Part shown: positions 9,189 to 16,641 of the stretch, piece after piece
How positions within the stretch are numbered: position 1 is the stretch's first letter
Layout: every line of letters begins with the position of its first letter
UHGV virus genome: UHGV-0180138
DNA: 46,657 bases
Reading direction: 5' to 3' (one strand)
From: a virus
Position numbers and translations under genes: made by a program
Notes under the pieces: model-generated
What the model was told of the DNA's origin: nothing
Database searches by the model: none
The model's input: only the letters and a program-made list of their open reading frames with translations

Positions 9189-9879
9189 AACGGCTTATTC
9201 AATGTTTGATGGATCTGGAATCATGCTTCTTGAGTATGCGAAGGCTGGTTATCAGTGCTATTGTTTTAATGCTGATGAGGGCAATCATGGTGAATATTTT
9301 ATTAAAATGAAACATAAAAATTTGCATTATGTGAATATATGGATTGATGAAAATTTTATTGATAACATCATCAAAATGGATATCCAGAAGCCTGATATTG
9401 TATTTGGCTTTCCAGACTGTACTATGTTTGCGCAGTCTGGTAGTAAACATGTTCGTGATAATAACGATGTTATGGTGGCGCTAAAAAATGCAATCATGGT
9501 TGAAAGTGTAGGTAATTATTTTGGTGTTCCGTGGATGGCTGAAAATCCTGTAGGAAGACTGTCAACATTATGGCGCAAGCCAGATTTTTATTTTAATCCG
9601 CGTGATTTCGGTAATTATCTTGATGAATCTGATGGATCGTTTCATCCAAAAATGCCGTTGAAGGATGGGTATACCAAAAAAACAGCTATTTGGCATGGCA
9701 ACGGATTTATTGAGCCTAAGCGCAATCCTTTAAGCGACAATGAAGGTGTGATGTTTTTTTGGGGTTGGCGATGGTTAGGAGGCAAATCAGCAAAGACAAA
9801 ACAGCTTCGTTCACTCACACCGCGCGGCTTTGCCCGTGCTGTATTCCTGGCTAACCATGACCGCGTTTTACCGGACTAA
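9160..9879 (+). CDS. short DNA cytosine-C5 methyltransferase-like protein
   Basis: 239 aa; motif I-like FDGSGIM, motif IV-like GFPDCTMFAQSG (cf. GFPCQ), motif VI-like ENPVG (cf. ENV); unusually short, no obvious target-recognition domain. Confidence 0.5.
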   Translation: MAIMKITANRTAYSMFDGSGIMLLEYAKAGYQCYCFNADEGNHGEYFIKMKHKNLHYVNIWIDENFIDNIIKMDIQKPDIVFGFPDCTMFAQSGSKHVRDNNDVMVALKNAIMVESVGNYFGVPWMAENPVGRLSTLWRKPDFYFNPRDFGNYLDESDGSFHPKMPLKDGYTKKTAIWHGNGFIEPKRNPLSDNEGVMFFWGWRWLGGKSAKTKQLRSLTPRGFARAVFLANHDRVLPD

Positions 9880-9880
9880 A

Positions 9881-9961
9881 GTTTACAAAATGGCGTCATT
9901 GCGTGATGCGGATCACATAATGGCGCTTTTTGCCTTGTTTTGGGGTATCCATTTTGTATAC
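9881..9961. promoter_or_regulatory. inverted pair of conserved motif (GTTTACAAAATGGCG at 9881-9895 plus; GTATACAAAATGGA at 9961-9948 minus)
   Basis: Direct reading; intergenic gap after methyltransferase gene. Confidence 0.5.
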
Positions 9962-10038
9962 TTCAAGCAAACAAAATGCTCTTTAAAAATCCGGCAGCGC
10001 TGAAATGCGTAGAAATCACCTGAAAAGGAGAGAGCATT

Positions 10039-10215
10039 ATGTCTTTTGATGATTACCAATGGCATGACGACTATGAACGAGAAAGCGTCATGCGTGCAAT
10101 GTGCAATGTATGCAGCACGAAGAAAGGAGGCTGTAACGAGTGCAACGAATGCTTAGATCATTGGCTAAGGGCCGGACACGCCGAAAGGCTGAACGAAACA
10201 GAGAATCAAAAATAA
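10039..10215 (+). CDS. small Cys-rich protein (58 aa), zinc-ribbon-like
   Basis: ATG with SD AAGGAGAG; CNVCSTKKGGCNECNEC; below track cutoff. Confidence 0.4.
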   Translation: MSFDDYQWHDDYERESVMRAMCNVCSTKKGGCNECNECLDHWLRAGHAERLNETENQK

Positions 10216-10229
10216 TCGGGGTGGTTTTT

Positions 10230-10835
10230 ATGCAAAACCCTAAAAAACCCATAAGACGCCGTTGCAAATGCTGCGGCGTTTTTTTTGAGCCTAAATATCA
10301 CAATCAAACGTGGTGCAGCGATGAATGTCTGGAAGAACTGAAGTTTGATCAGCTATGTCGCGACCGTGAGAAGGCTATGAAGGCTATGGAGCGGAAGAAA
10401 CGCCGGGATAGCCAGCGTGAAGAACGCAACCGGAAGCGTAAACAGTTAAATCCGCGTAGTTATTGGTTAAAGCAGGCGCAATCGGTATTTAATGCATATA
10501 TCCGCGAACGCGACGCGGGTCAGCCGTGTATATCTTGCGGGACTTATTACGGCGATCAGTGTTCCTGGGATGCCGGGCACTATAGAACGGTTGCTGCCGC
10601 AGGGCACCTTCGTTTTAACGAAGATAACTGCCATCGCCAATGCAGGCACTGCAACCAGACATTAGACGGCAACATAGCAGCTTATCGCCCTGCACTGATT
10701 AGAAAAATTGGCCTCGCCAGGGTGGAAGCGCTGGAGAACAACAACGATACGCATAAATGGACGATCGAAGAATGTAAAGAGATTATAAAAATCTATCAGG
10801 CGAAATTGGACGCCTTAAGGAGAAAGGCAGCATGA
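10230..10835 (+). CDS. ninG: NinG/Rap-family recombination endonuclease
   Basis: Strong similarity pattern to lambda NinG (CISCG...WDAGHYRT...LRFNE...HRWTIEECK); start at in-frame ATG 10230 within track ORF. Confidence 0.8.
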   Translation: MQNPKKPIRRRCKCCGVFFEPKYHNQTWCSDECLEELKFDQLCRDREKAMKAMERKKRRDSQREERNRKRKQLNPRSYWLKQAQSVFNAYIRERDAGQPCISCGTYYGDQCSWDAGHYRTVAAAGHLRFNEDNCHRQCRHCNQTLDGNIAAYRPALIRKIGLARVEALENNNDTHKWTIEECKEIIKIYQAKLDALRRKAA

Positions 10836-11239
10836 ATGAATATTCTTTTAGCCTGCCTTACCCGCCATCGAATAACCGCTATTACCGACATTCGCGCGGT
10901 TTTCACTATATCAGCAAAGTGGGGAAGGAATACCGGGAACAAGTAAAAGACATCATCGAATTATTAAATTTAGACATTAACCTATCTTGCCGACTGGCAA
11001 TCGCCATTTATGCCGCGCCGCCGGATAACCGGATCAGAGATCTGGATAATATCCCAAAATGCCTTTTTGACAGCCTTACTTACGCCGGATTCTGGACTGA
11101 CGACGGACAAATCGACTCAATAAAAATTGTACGCTGCCGGAAGGTAAAAGGCGGGCGATTGTTTATCAAGGTACGCGAACGCGGCGACCTGCTACCGGAT
11201 ATTGACGAATACGCGACCAATATGTGGAGTGAGCAATGA
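10832..11239 (+). CDS. rusA: Holliday junction resolvase RusA
   Basis: PYPPSNNRYYRHSRG and DLDNIPKCLFDSLTYAGFWTDDGQI match RusA. Confidence 0.85.
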   Translation: MNEYSFSLPYPPSNNRYYRHSRGFHYISKVGKEYREQVKDIIELLNLDINLSCRLAIAIYAAPPDNRIRDLDNIPKCLFDSLTYAGFWTDDGQIDSIKIVRCRKVKGGRLFIKVRERGDLLPDIDEYATNMWSEQ

Positions 11240-11418
11240 AAAACGAAGTTAAAGATCTGCAAATAGATATTCAGCGCGACGAACGTGATTTAGAGACGGT
11301 CCGACAAATCCAGGCTTTCCACATGCGCGAATTACTTGCGCTGAAAGAGTTTGAAAGAAAGCTGGTGCAATCCATTTCTGATCGTAAATGCCTTATTGCT
11401 CGTTACGGGGGGAAATAA
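11236..11418 (+). CDS. hypothetical protein
   Basis: 60-aa ORF. Confidence 0.45.
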   Translation: MKNEVKDLQIDIQRDERDLETVRQIQAFHMRELLALKEFERKLVQSISDRKCLIARYGGK

Positions 11419-12140
11419 TGAATTTAGAATCCATTCTGAAATTCCACTTCCCAAAATCACCGCGATTATCAGACGAAAGCCGGGGAACATCACCTGATGC
11501 ACTTAATACTACTGATGCGCTTACCGCCGCTGGTATGGCGCAATCGCGCGTAGAGCTTGGTTATAGCGCTTTTCTAGGGAAGATGGAACTATCACAAGCC
11601 GAAAAACACAGGGCCGTAGTTTTGCTTACAGAGCGTTTAAGAGCTATGGCAAAAGATTACGAATACGTCATGGAACTGGAGGAGAGCCAGCGCAATGATT
11701 TTATTATTCTTGTTGCCGTTTTCGCGTTTCGGGATTATTGCCAAAGCGCCGCGACGGAAAAAACTTGTATGGAGTGCGGCGGATATAAATTTACGTTTGA
11801 CGAATACGGAGAAAAACACCTTTGCAAAAAATGCAAGGGGCACGGGAAAGTTCGCAATCATTGTAAACAATGCAAGGGGCGCGGCGAGATACCGGATAAA
11901 ACAGCCAGCAATGCGGCAGAAATGCCAGTCTTCAAAACGTGCCAGCACTGTGGCGGGCGCGGGTACTCGCGTTTCCCGGTAGATCTCGTCCGGCAGGCTG
12001 TTAACCAGCTTGTTTTCCCGGTAAGCCGATCAACATGGTGGAAGAAATACAGGGTTTTCTATGAGGACGCCATAGCGGAGCTATTCAAAGAAGAAGCCCG
12101 CGCGGAAAGCGAAATCAAGCGAGTGACACGGGGTGAATAA
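11418..12140 (+). CDS. Q-like late regulator candidate with four CxxCxGxG zinc-finger repeats
   Basis: Follows ninG-rusA as Q does in lambdoid phages; CMECGG/CKKCKGHG/CKQCKGRG/CQHCGGRG; start ATG 11418 overlaps upstream stop; function inferred from position. Confidence 0.35.
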   Translation: MNLESILKFHFPKSPRLSDESRGTSPDALNTTDALTAAGMAQSRVELGYSAFLGKMELSQAEKHRAVVLLTERLRAMAKDYEYVMELEESQRNDFIILVAVFAFRDYCQSAATEKTCMECGGYKFTFDEYGEKHLCKKCKGHGKVRNHCKQCKGRGEIPDKTASNAAEMPVFKTCQHCGGRGYSRFPVDLVRQAVNQLVFPVSRSTWWKKYRVFYEDAIAELFKEEARAESEIKRVTRGE

Positions 12141-12340
12141 TGGATAAGCTGGAAATAAACGATCAGTTCGCTGTTATCTTATTTGAAGACAAAACAGGCG
12201 GCGCATGGTGTAAGAAAGTTACTGGTGCGGAAGCGCGTTTAATATTAGGTATGGCAAGCGCGTTAAATGAAGGCGAATTGCCTGCCATTCCTGTTAAGCC
12301 AGTGCATATCTATAAGCGGGGCGATGATGAAAATAATTAA
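12140..12340 (+). CDS. hypothetical protein
   Basis: 66-aa ORF. Confidence 0.45.
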   Translation: MDKLEINDQFAVILFEDKTGGAWCKKVTGAEARLILGMASALNEGELPAIPVKPVHIYKRGDDENN

Positions 12341-12674
12341 TATCGGGTGGTTATATTGCGAAAACTGCTACGAAGACGGCATGCTCGTTAAGACTGAAAA
12401 AGGTTGTGGCCTCTTTCTGTATCAAGGCGATAAGTTTGTTTGTCCGCGATGCGGTGGTAGTGGTGAGATAGAAATTATTGAAGATAACGCCGAAGCGCCA
12501 GAACCAGAGCGCATTGTCCTTGACGAAAAAATAAAAATTCATCCTGATTTATTACAGCAAATTATCGATCACGTATCGGCAGCAGCAATCTACAGCAATA
12601 ACAATTATCAGCGTGAAATTAACGTCAAACGTGCGATTGAGCAGTATTTCGAGGGTGATGATAATGAAGCCTAA
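12324..12674 (+). CDS. hypothetical protein with CxxC...CxxC zinc-ribbon motif
   Basis: CENC...CPRCGG. Confidence 0.5.
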   Translation: MMKIINIGWLYCENCYEDGMLVKTEKGCGLFLYQGDKFVCPRCGGSGEIEIIEDNAEAPEPERIVLDEKIKIHPDLLQQIIDHVSAAAIYSNNNYQREINVKRAIEQYFEGDDNEA

Positions 12675-12936
12675 ATTAAAAGAACATATTTACCGCCAGT
12701 TGGTTAACGAGCTTGCGGATACAGCACGATATTACGCCGGGACACAACAGCTACGCGGGCGGCTATCTTCGGTTGTTAACCGCTATATTGATGCCGGATG
12801 CCATCGCAAAGGTGAAATTACGATGGATGAAGCCATCAAGCGCCGGACGGCTGAATGGTCAGTTAGTAACACCGGATTGACCGGATACATTGAAGGCTAT
12901 AACGACTGTTTACAGGATCATAGCGATGGCAAGTAA
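12664..12936 (+). CDS. hypothetical protein
   Basis: ATG 12664 with SD GAGGGTG. Confidence 0.5.
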   Translation: MKPKLKEHIYRQLVNELADTARYYAGTQQLRGRLSSVVNRYIDAGCHRKGEITMDEAIKRRTAEWSVSNTGLTGYIEGYNDCLQDHSDGK

Positions 12937-13234
12937 AGATCTACATTTAAACCTGAAAGGAGAATACTTTTACGCTATCCGGGCGAGAAAGAAGGTGGAG
13001 GAATACCGACTTTATAATGACTACTGGCGTAAACGCCTGGAAGGGCGGGAATATGAACGCCTGATCATTAAGCTGGGCTATCCAGCCAGCCACGAAACAC
13101 ACCGGATCATAAACCTGCCTTATTTCGGGTATGAAGTGAAAACTATCACACATCCATTGTTCGGCCCTGATCCTGTAAAGGTATTCGCAATTAAGTGTGA
13201 TGTGAATTGGATGTTAAGGTGGGGTGAGCAATGA
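12926..13234 (+). CDS. hypothetical protein
   Basis: ATG 12926 within track ORF 12890-13234. Confidence 0.5.
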   Translation: MASKDLHLNLKGEYFYAIRARKKVEEYRLYNDYWRKRLEGREYERLIIKLGYPASHETHRIINLPYFGYEVKTITHPLFGPDPVKVFAIKCDVNWMLRWGEQ

Positions 13235-13446
13235 AAAAAGCTGGCCTGTCAATTAACCGCGTATTGTGCGGCGACGAAAACGAGATCCGCATAGAAATTA
13301 AATTTAGCACAGGTAAAGAGATAATCCTTTACACGACACCTGAAAACCTGACGCTGGCACTTACTGGTAAATCTGAAACGCCGTGCGACGTCAGGTTACG
13401 CAATATTGAAATCAAGGAATTAAGGAAGGGTAAAAATGAAAAGTAA
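13231..13446 (+). CDS. hypothetical protein
   Basis: 71-aa ORF. Confidence 0.45.
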   Translation: MKKAGLSINRVLCGDENEIRIEIKFSTGKEIILYTTPENLTLALTGKSETPCDVRLRNIEIKELRKGKNEK

Positions 13447-13654
13447 CCGTAAACGCCTGGTAAGGGCGTACGATAAAGCATTAAAGGCTTTTGATGACCT
13501 GCGACACAATAAGCGCCAGCGCCGCAAGTGGGCGCGAATGCTTGTTAATGAATGGCATTATCCTGATGCTGCCTTGATAGAAGGCGCACCGCCATTTACA
13601 CAGGAGCAAGCCGACGAAGTGGCTAACGATAACGTTTACTATATGATGTGGTGA
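13436..13654 (+). CDS. hypothetical protein, paralog A of tandem pair
   Basis: MKSNRKRLVRAYDKAL...DNVYYMMW; first 17 nt identical to next gene. Confidence 0.55.
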   Translation: MKSNRKRLVRAYDKALKAFDDLRHNKRQRRKWARMLVNEWHYPDAALIEGAPPFTQEQADEVANDNVYYMMW

Positions 13655-13658
13655 CAAT

Positions 13659-13895
13659 ATGAAAAGTAACCGTAAGCGCATGATAAGAGCATATGATAGA
13701 GCGTTAATCGAATTTAACGAACTATCACGCAGTAAGCGCCGCCGCAGACAATTCGCGCGACTTCTTTTTCATGTATGGCACGACGCTGATTTCTTTTTTG
13801 ATGCCAGACATATAACACAGGAAGATGCGGATAATATAGCTTACGATAACGTTTACTACATATTAAGAAGGTGGGAATATGAAAATAATCATTGA
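13659..13895 (+). CDS. hypothetical protein, paralog B of tandem pair
   Basis: MKSNRKRMIRAYDRAL...DNVYYILRRW. Confidence 0.55.
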   Translation: MKSNRKRMIRAYDRALIEFNELSRSKRRRRQFARLLFHVWHDADFFFDARHITQEDADNIAYDNVYYILRRWEYENNH

Positions 13896-14244
13896 TTACC
13901 TTTGCCATGTATTCAATACAATTTTCGGCTTTTATCAACAACCGTTTCTCAAAGAATGGGATTCGATGCTAAACGACATCCTCGACAAAGGATTAATAAT
14001 GGAGGTTGACGAGCTTACAATCAAAATTAATTACGAAGGTGATGAATACCAAATCTGGGTAGGTAATAGATGGTATGCATACGCTCATCTTTATTCGCTA
14101 AATGGAAAACTCATCCCTAGCAGACAGGAATTTAGACCGCGTTTCCGCACAATGCGCCGACTGCATGATCTGCATATGAATATATTTGAAGATCAGGAAG
14201 AACGGGAACTATTCAAAATTTACGGGGATAAATCATGGAGCTAA
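13879..14244 (+). CDS. hypothetical protein
   Basis: 121-aa ORF. Confidence 0.5.
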   Translation: MKIIIDYLCHVFNTIFGFYQQPFLKEWDSMLNDILDKGLIMEVDELTIKINYEGDEYQIWVGNRWYAYAHLYSLNGKLIPSRQEFRPRFRTMRRLHDLHMNIFEDQEERELFKIYGDKSWS

Positions 14245-14465
14245 AAATCTGGCAGGCTATCGACGTAGTTGATAACGAATTATCCATGTTTGCCACTGAT
14301 GGAAAGCGCGTGGTGATCGCTACATGGACGCATAACCATGATGATATTGTTTTTCGTCGCAAGGCTGCGGAGTGGCTTTTCTCTGACAACGGCTACACGA
14401 TGAATATCATGCAGCTTTCCAGAATGAAGGATGAAAAGCTGGTAGACAGCTACACAACTGCATAG
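14235..14465 (+). CDS. hypothetical protein
   Basis: 76-aa ORF. Confidence 0.45.
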   Translation: MELKIWQAIDVVDNELSMFATDGKRVVIATWTHNHDDIVFRRKAAEWLFSDNGYTMNIMQLSRMKDEKLVDSYTTA

Positions 14466-14475
14466 CGGGGTAAAT

Positions 14476-14709
14476 ATGCGTATCTATGAACACAAGCGGG
14501 ATAAAACCCGCTTTTTTGTTCGTGCTGGCGTGGCGTACCAGTATCACGACTGCGGATATATTGAGGCGCTTGCTTACGACCTTGATTTCGAACAAGAAAA
14601 AGAATGGTTTGACTTTAAGATTTACCGGAAGCGCAAACCGACGCGCGACGAGCGCCACGCTATCCGTGATTTCTTAATCAGCATTGACCGCTGGGAGGCA
14701 GAGGAATGA
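14476..14709 (+). CDS. hypothetical protein
   Basis: 77-aa ORF. Confidence 0.45.
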   Translation: MRIYEHKRDKTRFFVRAGVAYQYHDCGYIEALAYDLDFEQEKEWFDFKIYRKRKPTRDERHAIRDFLISIDRWEAEE

Positions 14710-14999
14710 AAACGAAGAAAACAGCAGATCAGAAAGCGTTAGTTATCGCTACAACGGACGTGTCGTTATTCACGAAGGGTGAAGAAATAGATCTTAAATT
14801 GCTTTTCGGTATGTTTGAGCCGCACGAAAAGCCGTGGTTTGTTCATGAAGATAAACAGGGAAATATGCGTGTCGTAGTGCCGGATAAAAACAGCGACATA
14901 TTTTTCGCTATTCCAGATCCGTTGCATGACGGTGAAGTGCTGGCGGTATTGTTGATTGCTGATGCTGTTACTTATAAGGGTAAAAAATATGAAAGTTAA
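14706..14999 (+). CDS. hypothetical protein
   Basis: 97-aa ORF. Confidence 0.5.
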   Translation: MKTKKTADQKALVIATTDVSLFTKGEEIDLKLLFGMFEPHEKPWFVHEDKQGNMRVVVPDKNSDIFFAIPDPLHDGEVLAVLLIADAVTYKGKKYES

Positions 15000-15216
15000 A
15001 TTCTTGCACGATCACGGATACCCGTCATTAAAACGCGTGGTAGGGGAAACGGTAGACGTTGTTCATTCTGATGATGTGACCTGCGTCATTATGGGTAAAG
15101 ACCTTATCGCTCACGGTGCTGATGATCACTACATTAACCCGGCGTGGTCATATACGTTTAGCCTGGGCGACTTCGTAGGCGATAAGGGTCGCGGTCTGCA
15201 AGTGGTCGAGGGTTAA
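14989..15216 (+). CDS. hypothetical protein
   Basis: ATG 14989 within track ORF. Confidence 0.45.
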   Translation: MKVKFLHDHGYPSLKRVVGETVDVVHSDDVTCVIMGKDLIAHGADDHYINPAWSYTFSLGDFVGDKGRGLQVVEG

Positions 15217-15220
15217 TATT

Positions 15221-15436
15221 ATGGACGTTTACGAGGATCTATACCTACAGACAAATAGCCGCACTTTTTATTTTCTGAAAAGCGGCGTCGTATATCGCAG
15301 CGACGACGGGGTGATAATGAAAGAGTGGTTATTTAAGCGTAAAGACCTACTTGATGATCTGGTTTTTGCCGGGATATTCCGTAAACGTCCGGCTAACCTG
15401 GAAGAAGAAATGCTGATCGACGAGGTATTAAAATGA
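15221..15436 (+). CDS. hypothetical protein
   Basis: 71-aa ORF. Confidence 0.45.
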   Translation: MDVYEDLYLQTNSRTFYFLKSGVVYRSDDGVIMKEWLFKRKDLLDDLVFAGIFRKRPANLEEEMLIDEVLK

Positions 15437-15684
15437 AAATCAAGGTAAGTTATTTCAGGGCGAAAGATAAGGCCACTGGACGGATGATGGCTATCCTGGT
15501 TAACGAAGCGAATTATATGTTTTTCCTTCAACCGTGGTGTATTGCCGATCTTAATGACGATTATCGACGTCACGCCGCGCGAAGTGCGGTAGGCATGAAA
15601 GGCTGGCAACCGCGCGACATGCTCAATTATTGCGACTGGAATCTGATAGCGAAATACACGGTCGATTATAAAGGGGTTTTCTAA
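15433..15684 (+). CDS. hypothetical protein
   Basis: 83-aa ORF. Confidence 0.5.
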   Translation: MKIKVSYFRAKDKATGRMMAILVNEANYMFFLQPWCIADLNDDYRRHAARSAVGMKGWQPRDMLNYCDWNLIAKYTVDYKGVF

Positions 15685-15890
15685 TGTATGTTCGATGCAC
15701 TGAATCAAAAACATTATGCTTTGAGGTTGGCGGAATATATACCGTAGATCACCTGACTGGTGATGAAAATAACATCCAATACATTAAAGACGATCACGGC
15801 GACGCGTGGCGCTATTGGGATTGTTACGCACGGGGACACGTTACCAGTCATTTCGGTACGGAAGCGATCGCGCGTTTTGTTAAATGGTAA
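15684..15890 (+). CDS. small protein, member 1 of four-gene tandem paralog family
   Basis: VRCTESKTLCFEVGGIYT...DDHGDAWRYW; shared pattern C-x-ES-K-x-x-F-x-x-G-x-Y ... D-x-x-G-x-x-W. Confidence 0.5.
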   Translation: MYVRCTESKTLCFEVGGIYTVDHLTGDENNIQYIKDDHGDAWRYWDCYARGHVTSHFGTEAIARFVKW

Positions 15891-15899
15891 GGGGTAAGC

Positions 15900-16151
15900 A
15901 TGAAGCATTTATATTTTGAGGTATTGCATACGCGCGACCGCAATATTTTTGAAGAAGGTAAGATCTATTGCGGCGTTCAACTACACGGCGCACCGGGCGG
16001 TGAGGCGATGGCGATAACTGGTGATGATGATAAGGTTTATTTTGCTTATGTCACACGCTTTCCACACACTGACAAGGTTTATTATCGCATCGTGCATGAC
16101 TTCCATGGCGTAGCTGTATTTTGTGACCGCGAAGGCAGTAAACCGGAATAG
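15900..16151 (+). CDS. small protein, member 2 of tandem paralog family
   Basis: More divergent; FEEGKIYCG ... GDDDKVYFAY. Confidence 0.45.
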   Translation: MKHLYFEVLHTRDRNIFEEGKIYCGVQLHGAPGGEAMAITGDDDKVYFAYVTRFPHTDKVYYRIVHDFHGVAVFCDREGSKPE

Positions 16152-16160
16152 GTGGTGGTT

Positions 16161-16421
16161 ATGAGTCGGAAACATAGATACCAGTGCACGTACTCACGAT
16201 GCGGCGCGTTTTTTAAGAATGGCAAGATCTACGAGGTTGGCGCGGCATTGGTTGACGCAAAGGATCAGGAATATATTCACGCTATCACTGACGACCAGGG
16301 CCAGTTATGGCGCTTTTATAAGATGGGGTATGGCACGGCGCTTGTTTATGCGCGTGCTGGTGGTGGTGCTTTTGCTGCATTTTCGTATGTAGGGGGTGTG
16401 GGAAATGATTTTAACGTGTAA
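16161..16421 (+). CDS. small protein, member 3 of tandem paralog family
   Basis: ATG 16161 after SD GGTGGTGG; CTYSRCGAFFKNGKIYEV ... DDQGQLWRFY. Confidence 0.5.
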   Translation: MSRKHRYQCTYSRCGAFFKNGKIYEVGAALVDAKDQEYIHAITDDQGQLWRFYKMGYGTALVYARAGGGAFAAFSYVGGVGNDFNV

Positions 16422-16623
16422 TGAGTCGAAATTAGGCTGTTTTGAGGAAGGCGCACAGTATACGGCTGAAAAACCAATGGGATTGTCCCCTAAATTTCCG
16501 TTTATCGTCGTGACTGACACTTACGGTCACTTATGGTATGCAGGGCCGCTAGGCGGTATTGGTCGTTATGTTGTCCGTAGTTGTGATGGGGCGATGAAAG
16601 TTACCTTTACGGAAGAAACATAA
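16405..16623 (+). CDS. small protein, member 4 of tandem paralog family
   Basis: ATG 16405 after SD GGGGGTG; LTCNESKLGCFEEGAQYT ... DTYGHLWYAG. Confidence 0.5.
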   Translation: MILTCNESKLGCFEEGAQYTAEKPMGLSPKFPFIVVTDTYGHLWYAGPLGGIGRYVVRSCDGAMKVTFTEET

Positions 16624-16641
16624 ATGTGATCTACCTCGCAA

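Follow-up and report, generated by a model that had tools for sequence, protein, structure and literature searches.

The 46,657-nt virus genome UHGV-0180138, analysed here over its full length and called the window, carries at 11418–12140 the gene of a 240-residue protein of the Q-lambda family of late antiterminators in its long-arm form. The gene closes the nin region behind ninG and rusA, as Q does in lambda, and its ATG start codon overlaps the TAA stop of an upstream 60-residue open reading frame (ORF) in the ORF list. All coordinates refer to the window, and the genes and elements from ninG to the spanin lie on the plus strand. Downstream of Q follow 25 small ORFs and then a short conserved block directly before the holin gene, which we consider the probable target of Q. 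The first-pass annotation, made from the DNA letters alone, had placed a 240-residue Q-like protein after ninG-rusA, about 6 kb and some 25 small genes upstream of the lysis cassette. Both parts of this description hold: the protein matches Q by profile, structure and model, as detailed below, and 6,357 nt and 25 ORFs separate the Q stop from the holin ATG.

The ORF product is almost certainly Q, a full-length member of Pfam family PF03589, because it is homologous to lambda Q from end to end by sequence, by Pfam profile and by predicted fold. It scored 101.6 bits against PF03589 (cut-off 26.7, E=2.7e-29) and matched phrog_127, 'anti-termination protein Q-like', across residues 1–238 (4.5e-78). 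The protein aligned end to end with the lambda Q chain 7ubm_Q of PDB entry 7UBM (E=1.4e-36), residues 1–123 pairing with lambda residues 1–124 at 94 bits. Identity with lambda Q (PDB 4MO1, 7UBJ–7UBN) is 33–38% over the full length, and the C-terminal end RVTR is conserved, with VTR in common with lambda Q. An AF2 model of the protein (pLDDT 80.1, pTM 0.70) retrieved lambda Q as all of its top eight PDB matches in Foldseek (7ubn_Q at E=1e-13, 7ubm_Q, 4mo1 and 7ubj-l). A longer, 250-residue reading from 11388 is unsupported, and homologues including lambda Q all begin MNLES or MRLES. The protein itself is of a known kind: close relatives at 94–95% identity already bear the annotation Q or antitermination protein, among them gp37 of phage mEp021, 'putative late gene regulator Q' (MH706966, 94% identical).

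Lambda Q and the window Q share an N-terminal torus segment, a four-helix body with a helix-turn-helix, a zinc ribbon and the C-terminal VTR. In lambda, the N-terminal 44 residues refold with NusA into a torus, or nozzle, at the RNA exit channel of the polymerase (PMC9388147). The equivalent segment of the window Q (residues 1–44, 11418–11549) aligns one to one with lambda residues 1–44; I6 replaces lambda V6, and all aligned sequences share G39. The predicted helix-turn-helix of the body (GYSRFPVDLVRQAVNQLVFPVSRSTWWKKYR, 11976–12062) was placed by alignment to the corresponding region of lambda Q. It is identical or carries one substitution in all group members examined, some of which have Q changed to R in the first helix. 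The AF2 model has helices at residues 188–198 and 204–237.

Between these parts lies the arm, with four CxxC motifs at residues 117 (CMECGGYK), 136 (CKKCKGHG), 149 (CKQCKGRG) and 175 (CQHCGGRG); three of the four are exact CxxCxGxG, and the motif at 117 lacks the final G. Alignment with lambda Q assigns the last two to the zinc ribbon of the lambda arm (11862–11951): C149, C152, C175 and C178 match lambda C118, C121, C144 and C147 with identical 22-residue spacing. The lambda arm touches the Q-binding element (QBE) in the DNA (PMC9388147). The first two motifs (C117xxC120 and C136xxC139, 11766–11834) form an extra zinc-knuckle pair that is not in lambda Q, which is 207 residues long and has one CxxC pair set. 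The cysteines of this extra pair are invariant in 25 long-arm homologues, the spacer between its two knuckles differing in length. All 24 of 24 database homologues have the four knuckles, as do phi80 gp17 and the Q proteins of SfV, SEN22, 640R1 and a Citrobacter prophage, and about every second Q-lambda-family gene in a sample of phage records is of the long length. By sequence, the four-knuckle long arm is thus an ordinary, common Q-lambda subfamily, of which lambda Q is the short form. The four DnaJ-type CxxCxGxG repeats noted in the first-pass annotation are therefore present, three exactly and one in part, but they are no peculiarity of this protein. Within the phage group described next, the extra-knuckle region (11766–11834) comes in two versions, GGYKFTFDEYGEKHLCKKCKGHG and GGHGHLPNPYCEYTSTICARCGGKG.

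The region of the window is about 86% identical in nucleotides to MagusPhagus, mEp010, mEp554, mEp044, mEp013, mEp515 and mEp021, and the window is a member of the published mEpimmI group of temperate coliphages, that is, mEp021 and its relatives. These were described as Nus-dependent, non-lambdoid gut coliphages, and the group's N-like early antiterminator and nut sites have been characterised (PMC11893012). Among the group genomes, homology ends exactly at the Q stop codon, which always overlaps the next start codon. The hypervariable cluster that begins there (12140–18392) consists, by ORF list and packing, of 25 small ORFs of 46–121 residues, all on the plus strand and tightly packed; non-coding gaps of more than 50 nt occur at two places only, one of 96 nt (16624–16719) and one of 105 nt (18393–18497). 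PHROG gave 'unknown function' or no match for 25 of 25 of these ORFs, and Pfam no match for the five that were searched. In mEp021 the order of ninG, rusA, Q, small genes and holin is the same and a pre-holin terminator is likewise present; there, eight genes (2 kb) stand between Q and holin in place of the 25 of the window. The length of the interval ranges from 1.9 kb, in mEp021 and mEp515 with eight genes each, to 6.7 kb, among IMG/VR relatives, and its gene content differs. We infer that the 25-ORF cluster is the distal part of the early-right operon.

The sole non-coding segment common to all group genomes is the stretch of about 90 nt before the holin (18409–18497). Group conservation begins with AAACAAATAGA(T) at 18411–18421, directly 5′ of the candidate −10 hexamer TAAAAT (18422–18427), and it may be a Q-binding element. 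Seven nucleotides past the −10, comparison with other pR′ regions points to AACAAT (18435–18440) as a candidate sigma-dependent pause element. An intrinsic terminator, a candidate tR′, lies directly 5′ of the holin ribosome-binding site (RBS; 18455–18478). Its hairpin, with the stem ACCCAGC/GCTGGGT, spans 18455–18473 and is followed by a T run to 18477; the RNA fold has a predicted energy of −18.3 kcal/mol (z = −3.3). At one stem position the window has an A-T pair where relatives have G-C, a compensatory change, and the terminator is annotated in mEp021, mEp010, mEp013, mEp044 and mEp515. The TAAAAT and terminator that the first-pass annotation had noticed just before the holin are thus both there.

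Across the group the block reads AAACAAAYRGAT-TAAAAT-AYTWCCT-AACAAT-14 nt-terminator-RBS-ATG. The conserved AAACAAAYRGAT abuts the −10, whereas the sequence upstream of AAACAAATAGA(T) is of two unrelated types. TAAAAT is invariant in the eight aligned genomes, in prophage RM9245, in FAH and in the more distant L069, none of which was chosen by motif pattern. We found the block in seven phages, in 35 of 5,426 complete E. coli genomes and in 41 IMG/VR contigs, the last retrieved by a pattern that fixes TAAAAT and therefore uninformative on −10 conservation. It is retained in RM9245 despite a different holin start. An exact-pattern scan of one genome per species gave zero matches to the block.

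How does this block compare with the late promoters of other Q-lambda-family phages? The lambda pR′ has a −35 TTGACT, a 17-nt spacer, a −10 TAAATT and, after a 6-nt gap, the pause element AACGAT. The SfV pR′ has the same spacer, gap and pause element with TTGCAT and TAAGAT, and phi80, in which pR′ and the Q site are annotated (JX871397), has TTGCAT, 17 nt, TAGATT, a 7-nt gap and AACGCT. The corresponding elements are TTTACA, 17 nt, TAATAT, 7 nt and AACAGT in SEN22; TTGATT, 16 nt, TAAATT, 6 nt and AATAAT in 640R1; and TTTACA, 17 nt, TAATCT, 6 nt and AATGAT in the Citrobacter prophage. A terminator follows within about 80 nt in all five non-lambda comparators, and lambda tR′ about 194 nt downstream. 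The window block fits this architecture, with TAAAAT, a 7-nt gap, AACAAT and a terminator, and so resembles lambda in having a −10, an AACNAT pause element and a terminator. It differs in place: lambda pR′ begins no more than about 80 nt from the Q stop, and those of phi80, SfV, SEN22 and 640R1, whose Q proteins have the same long-arm, four-CxxC form, begin 28–67 nt past it without an intervening gene cluster, whereas the candidate site of the window is 6.3 kb away. A conserved pR′ directly after Q, the canonical arrangement, was not found: in the window the Q stop overlaps the next ATG, and the TAAGCT/AACGAT element that comes next is not kept across the group.

We scanned genomes for a relaxed signature, namely a −10 hexamer, 6–7 nt, an AANNNT sigma-dependent pause element and a terminator. 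The site after Q was the only plus-strand match in SEN22, phi80, 640R1 and the Citrobacter prophage; SfV gave a second, overlapping match, and the scan misses lambda because its terminator is too distant. The signature begins 28–67 nt past the Q stop in about 46 of a further 62 long-arm Q loci from IMG/VR. The plus strand of the window has matches at 12145, at 18422 and at two overlapping places near 39.7 kb, and in the mEp clade the conserved copy is kilobases from Q. The same layout recurs outside the group. In L069, whose Q is 76% identical, 24 genes are followed by TAAAAT-6-AACAAT-terminator-holin. In a sister group (L061–L064, Q about 50% identical), 11–12 genes are followed by TATAAT-6-AATAAT-17 nt-terminator-holin, the single plus-strand match in this lineage; the sequence differs and the architecture is alike. 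At the place of AAACAAAYRGAT, both L069 and the sister lineage have AAACAA. As far as sequences can tell, these lineages lend independent support to a split layout.

The pre-holin block is therefore the best candidate for the target, given its pR′-like architecture, its group-wide conservation, which the sequence after Q does not share, and its recurrence in two distant lineages. On this sequence evidence, we think it probable that Q acts there, about 6 kb from its gene, in agreement with the first-pass annotation, which had suggested the TAAAAT/terminator block as a distant target.

Several observations weigh against this assignment. The window has no recognisable −35 hexamer at a spacing of 16–18 nt: at this position it has TCGCGC, most relatives have TTGTRG (3/6) and the sister lineage has AAGCGC, unlike the canonical comparators, all of which have TTGACT, TTGCAT, TTTACA or TTGATT. 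Consensus and position-weight-matrix scans of 10–21.5 kb found no strong plus-strand sigma70 promoter. No comparator has its terminator as near the start site as here, where it would end at about +43. The signature itself is permissive, with four plus-strand matches in the window against a mean of 0.73 in shuffled sequences, and the conservation of the block is partly circular for IMG/VR loci, which were retrieved by motif pattern. The two Q arm versions, compared in L016, L018, L020, L033, L045–L048, MagusPhagus and mEp010, do not co-vary with the two upstream block types, so that there is no evidence of co-evolution for binding. Finally, the study of the mEpimmI group only mentions a Q-lambda-like protein, leaving late antitermination and the late promoter uncharacterised (PMC11893012).

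Is the block a promoter at all? Polymerase may instead arrive from the early operon, in which case either the N-like antiterminator alone would carry it past the terminator, with Q acting elsewhere, or Q would load at a promoter-distal, sigma70-dependent TAAAAT/AACAAT pause with sigma retained or rebound. The lack of a −35 element in the window and the sister lineage and the negative promoter scans favour such an arrangement, as do the ORFs packed without break from Q to the block, the nutR2-like boxA just upstream of ninG and the published dependence of the group on Nus and N in early antitermination. On the other side, all Q proteins that have been characterised load at a promoter-proximal pause (PMC9388147). 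The spacing between −10 and pause element equals that of a canonical pR′, an argument for the first hexamer serving as a −10, and the sister lineage has a perfect TATAAT. We regard an arrival from upstream as unlikely, while giving it some weight. A further idea is that the Q switch of this clade has become uncoupled from a conventional promoter. As the block lacks a −35 element, Q bound just upstream of the −10 could replace the −35 contact through sigma region 4, serving as activator and antiterminator at once, or it could load onto polymerase that began kilobases upstream and paused, still or again bound to sigma, at −10-like elements in tandem. This seems to us quite improbable; if true, −35-replacing or distal-pause loading would be a mode of Q action undescribed for lambda, 21 or 82.

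Alternatively, Q might act at the canonical spot. The signature match at 12145–12163 (TAAGCT-7 nt-AACGAT) starts 5 nt past the Q stop, has a −35-like GTGACA inside the end of Q at a 16-nt spacer and closely resembles the SfV pR′ (ATGGATAAG.T...AACGAT). If it were the real pR′, the 25 small genes would be late genes and the pre-holin terminator merely one that is read through; the mEp021 annotation of one interval protein as a virion protein would suit this. The element is, on the other hand, the start of a coding sequence (MDKLEIND), and its −10 agrees with the consensus at only 3/6 positions. It is absent from mEp021, mEp515 and mEp044, which are isolated and viable phages, from FAH and from several IMG/VR genomes with essentially the same Q, and is altered by synonymous changes in two further relatives (L038, L047). 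No conserved terminator follows, the T run being broken in MagusPhagus and mEp010. From this sequence comparison we judge the element to be a coding coincidence or a relic, and a late promoter at this spot to be a long shot.

Least credible of all is that the product is a DnaJ-like zinc-finger chaperone or another zinc-ribbon protein and no antiterminator, a reading with next to no chance: PF00684, the DnaJ central domain, matched at E=2.5e-6 and Foldseek paired the arm of the model with 7zhs, the zinc-finger domain of DnaJA2 (probability 0.98, E=0.2), but the PF00684 score (28.1 bits) falls below its cut-off of 32.7 while PF03589 lies far above its own, no J-domain family is among the Pfam matches, and homology with lambda Q, which itself has two CxxCxGxG motifs, spans the entire protein with its N-terminus and helix-turn-helix body. 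Those two motifs form the zinc-ribbon arm of lambda Q and are the equivalents of knuckles 3 and 4 of the window protein. In the Foldseek list, DnaJA2 ranks only after the eight lambda Q structures and matches the arm alone. The likeness to the DnaJ/Hsp40 cysteine-rich domain (PF00684) consists of repeated CxxCxGxG and a local arm fold. Unlike DnaJ/Hsp40, the window Q has no J domain or C-terminal substrate-binding domains, and its knuckles are set in a Q-lambda body. The resemblance is confined to the motif level, and full-length homology to lambda Q, as read from the sequences, has already effectively refuted a chaperone.

Three other candidates were considered and rejected. The pre-holin block contains a boxA-like CCTAACAA, but a reading as nut site fails because half of the genomes have a disrupted ACAAT/ATTGT hairpin and the real nutR2-like boxA is found at about 9979. 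The best local promoter match, CTGACA-16-TATCAT at 14383, stands pR′/tR′-like before a terminator at 14494; its hexamers are conserved in no relative. The 96-nt gap (16624–16719) has a hairpin and TATATAA, but no A2/T6 hexamer, and was rejected as a universal target because mEp021, mEp515 and mEp013 lack the segment.

How would a Q encoded so far from its probable target work? We built a model on homology, fold, conservation and architecture, from which DNA binding, pausing, promoter activity and read-through are extrapolated. Early-right transcription from pR, aided by the N-like antiterminator (nutR2-like boxA at about 9979), would express ninG, rusA, Q and the accessory genes, the 25 small genes being accessory and lying distally in the early-right operon. 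By analogy with lambda, Q would bind the candidate Q-binding element AAACAAATAGAT just upstream of TAAAAT in the pre-holin block and load onto polymerase held at the sigma70-dependent promoter-proximal pause (AACAAT, 18435–40). Together with NusA, its N-terminal 44 residues may form the RNA-exit-channel nozzle that blocks terminator hairpins, as homology with lambda Q suggests. The modified polymerase would then read through the terminator at 18455 and transcribe the lysis and structural genes, which would constitute a Q-dependent late operon.

The genes around Q and the block are as follows. Upstream lie the ninG/rap homologue (10140–10835; PF05766 NinG, 4.4e-69), the rusA Holliday-junction resolvase gene (10832–11239; PF05866 RusA, 8e-15) and the 60-residue ORF whose stop overlaps the Q start (11236–11418; phrog_18514). 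Both the group and the sister lineage keep this last ORF before Q, and a 61-residue ORF occupies the same spot in L061 and L069. Downstream of the block, an HP1-family holin (18498–18698; PF16080 7.5e-16, phrog_20) would be the first gene of the putative late operon. It is followed by a lysozyme-type endolysin (18700–19191; PF00959 1e-43, phrog_7) and an Rz-like spanin (19179–19649; phrog_13 2.6e-40), in whose gene the ORF list has an embedded lipoprotein-like ORF (19369–19581). Farther downstream, about nine tiny tandem ORFs of roughly 20–35 residues occupy 20530–21340, between ORF 19986–20528 and the packaging genes; each encodes one hydrophobic helix (e.g., MFAFLLGVFVGIAVAVILIYGH, MNIYYFIWLLVLIVGIGVNIFRLW) and has its own RBS-like sequence. 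At 9975–10035, just upstream of a ninF-like ORF, a boxA-like GCTCTTTAAAAA precedes hairpin candidates with a purine-rich loop (..CACCTGAAAAGGAG..), at a position corresponding to the published mEp021 nutR2.

The accessory cluster holds further features. A terminator-like hairpin (AAGCGGG-ATAAAA-CCCGCTT plus a T run; 14494–14519, −18.8 kcal/mol, z = −5.7) lies inside ORF 14476–14709. It is kept in 8/8 group genomes, and in mEp010 its pairing is preserved by synonymous changes on both sides (CGG..CCG to CGC..GCG). A second terminator-like hairpin, in the 96-nt gap (16647–16680, −19.8 kcal/mol), is found only in genomes carrying its segment and corresponds to the ARNold terminators annotated in mEp554, mEp010 and mEp044. 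The 17-nt sequence AAAGTTTACAAAATGGC is present as an exact direct repeat at 9878–9894 and, 6.8 kb away, at 16640–16656; each copy runs into a terminator-like hairpin, which lies behind the methyltransferase gene in one case and in the 96-nt gap in the other. Paralogues are present as well: two adjacent phrog_8758 ORFs (13436–13895) both begin MKSNRKR, and ORFs 15684–15890 and 16152–16421 both match phrog_31142, with which the neighbouring ORFs 15900–16151 and 16396–16623 share, by eye, a G.IY-type motif. The mEp021 counterpart of ORF 15221–15436 (mEp021_41, L003 4538–4786) is annotated 'virion structural protein', though far from the structural genes. Between 9 and 22 kb, neither Rfam (E up to 1) nor a tRNA scan returned anything relevant.

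Q proteins are the textbook case of processive antitermination, and the Q gene with its adjacent pR′ and Q-binding element is usually treated as one inseparable cassette. A literature search for Q genes apart from pR′ found no description of such an arrangement. The separation of Q from its probable target by hypervariable genes, together with the missing −35, is a modest organisational variant of the classical cassette. If our reading is true, Q and its loading site stand 2–7 kb apart in mEpimmI, a prevalent gut coliphage group, with a hypervariable set of small genes in between, and these accessory genes would belong to the early, N-dependent transcription unit. The block would then give the mEpimmI group a concrete late promoter candidate and, as a natural −35-less pR′, would be useful for probing Q-lambda-type loading.

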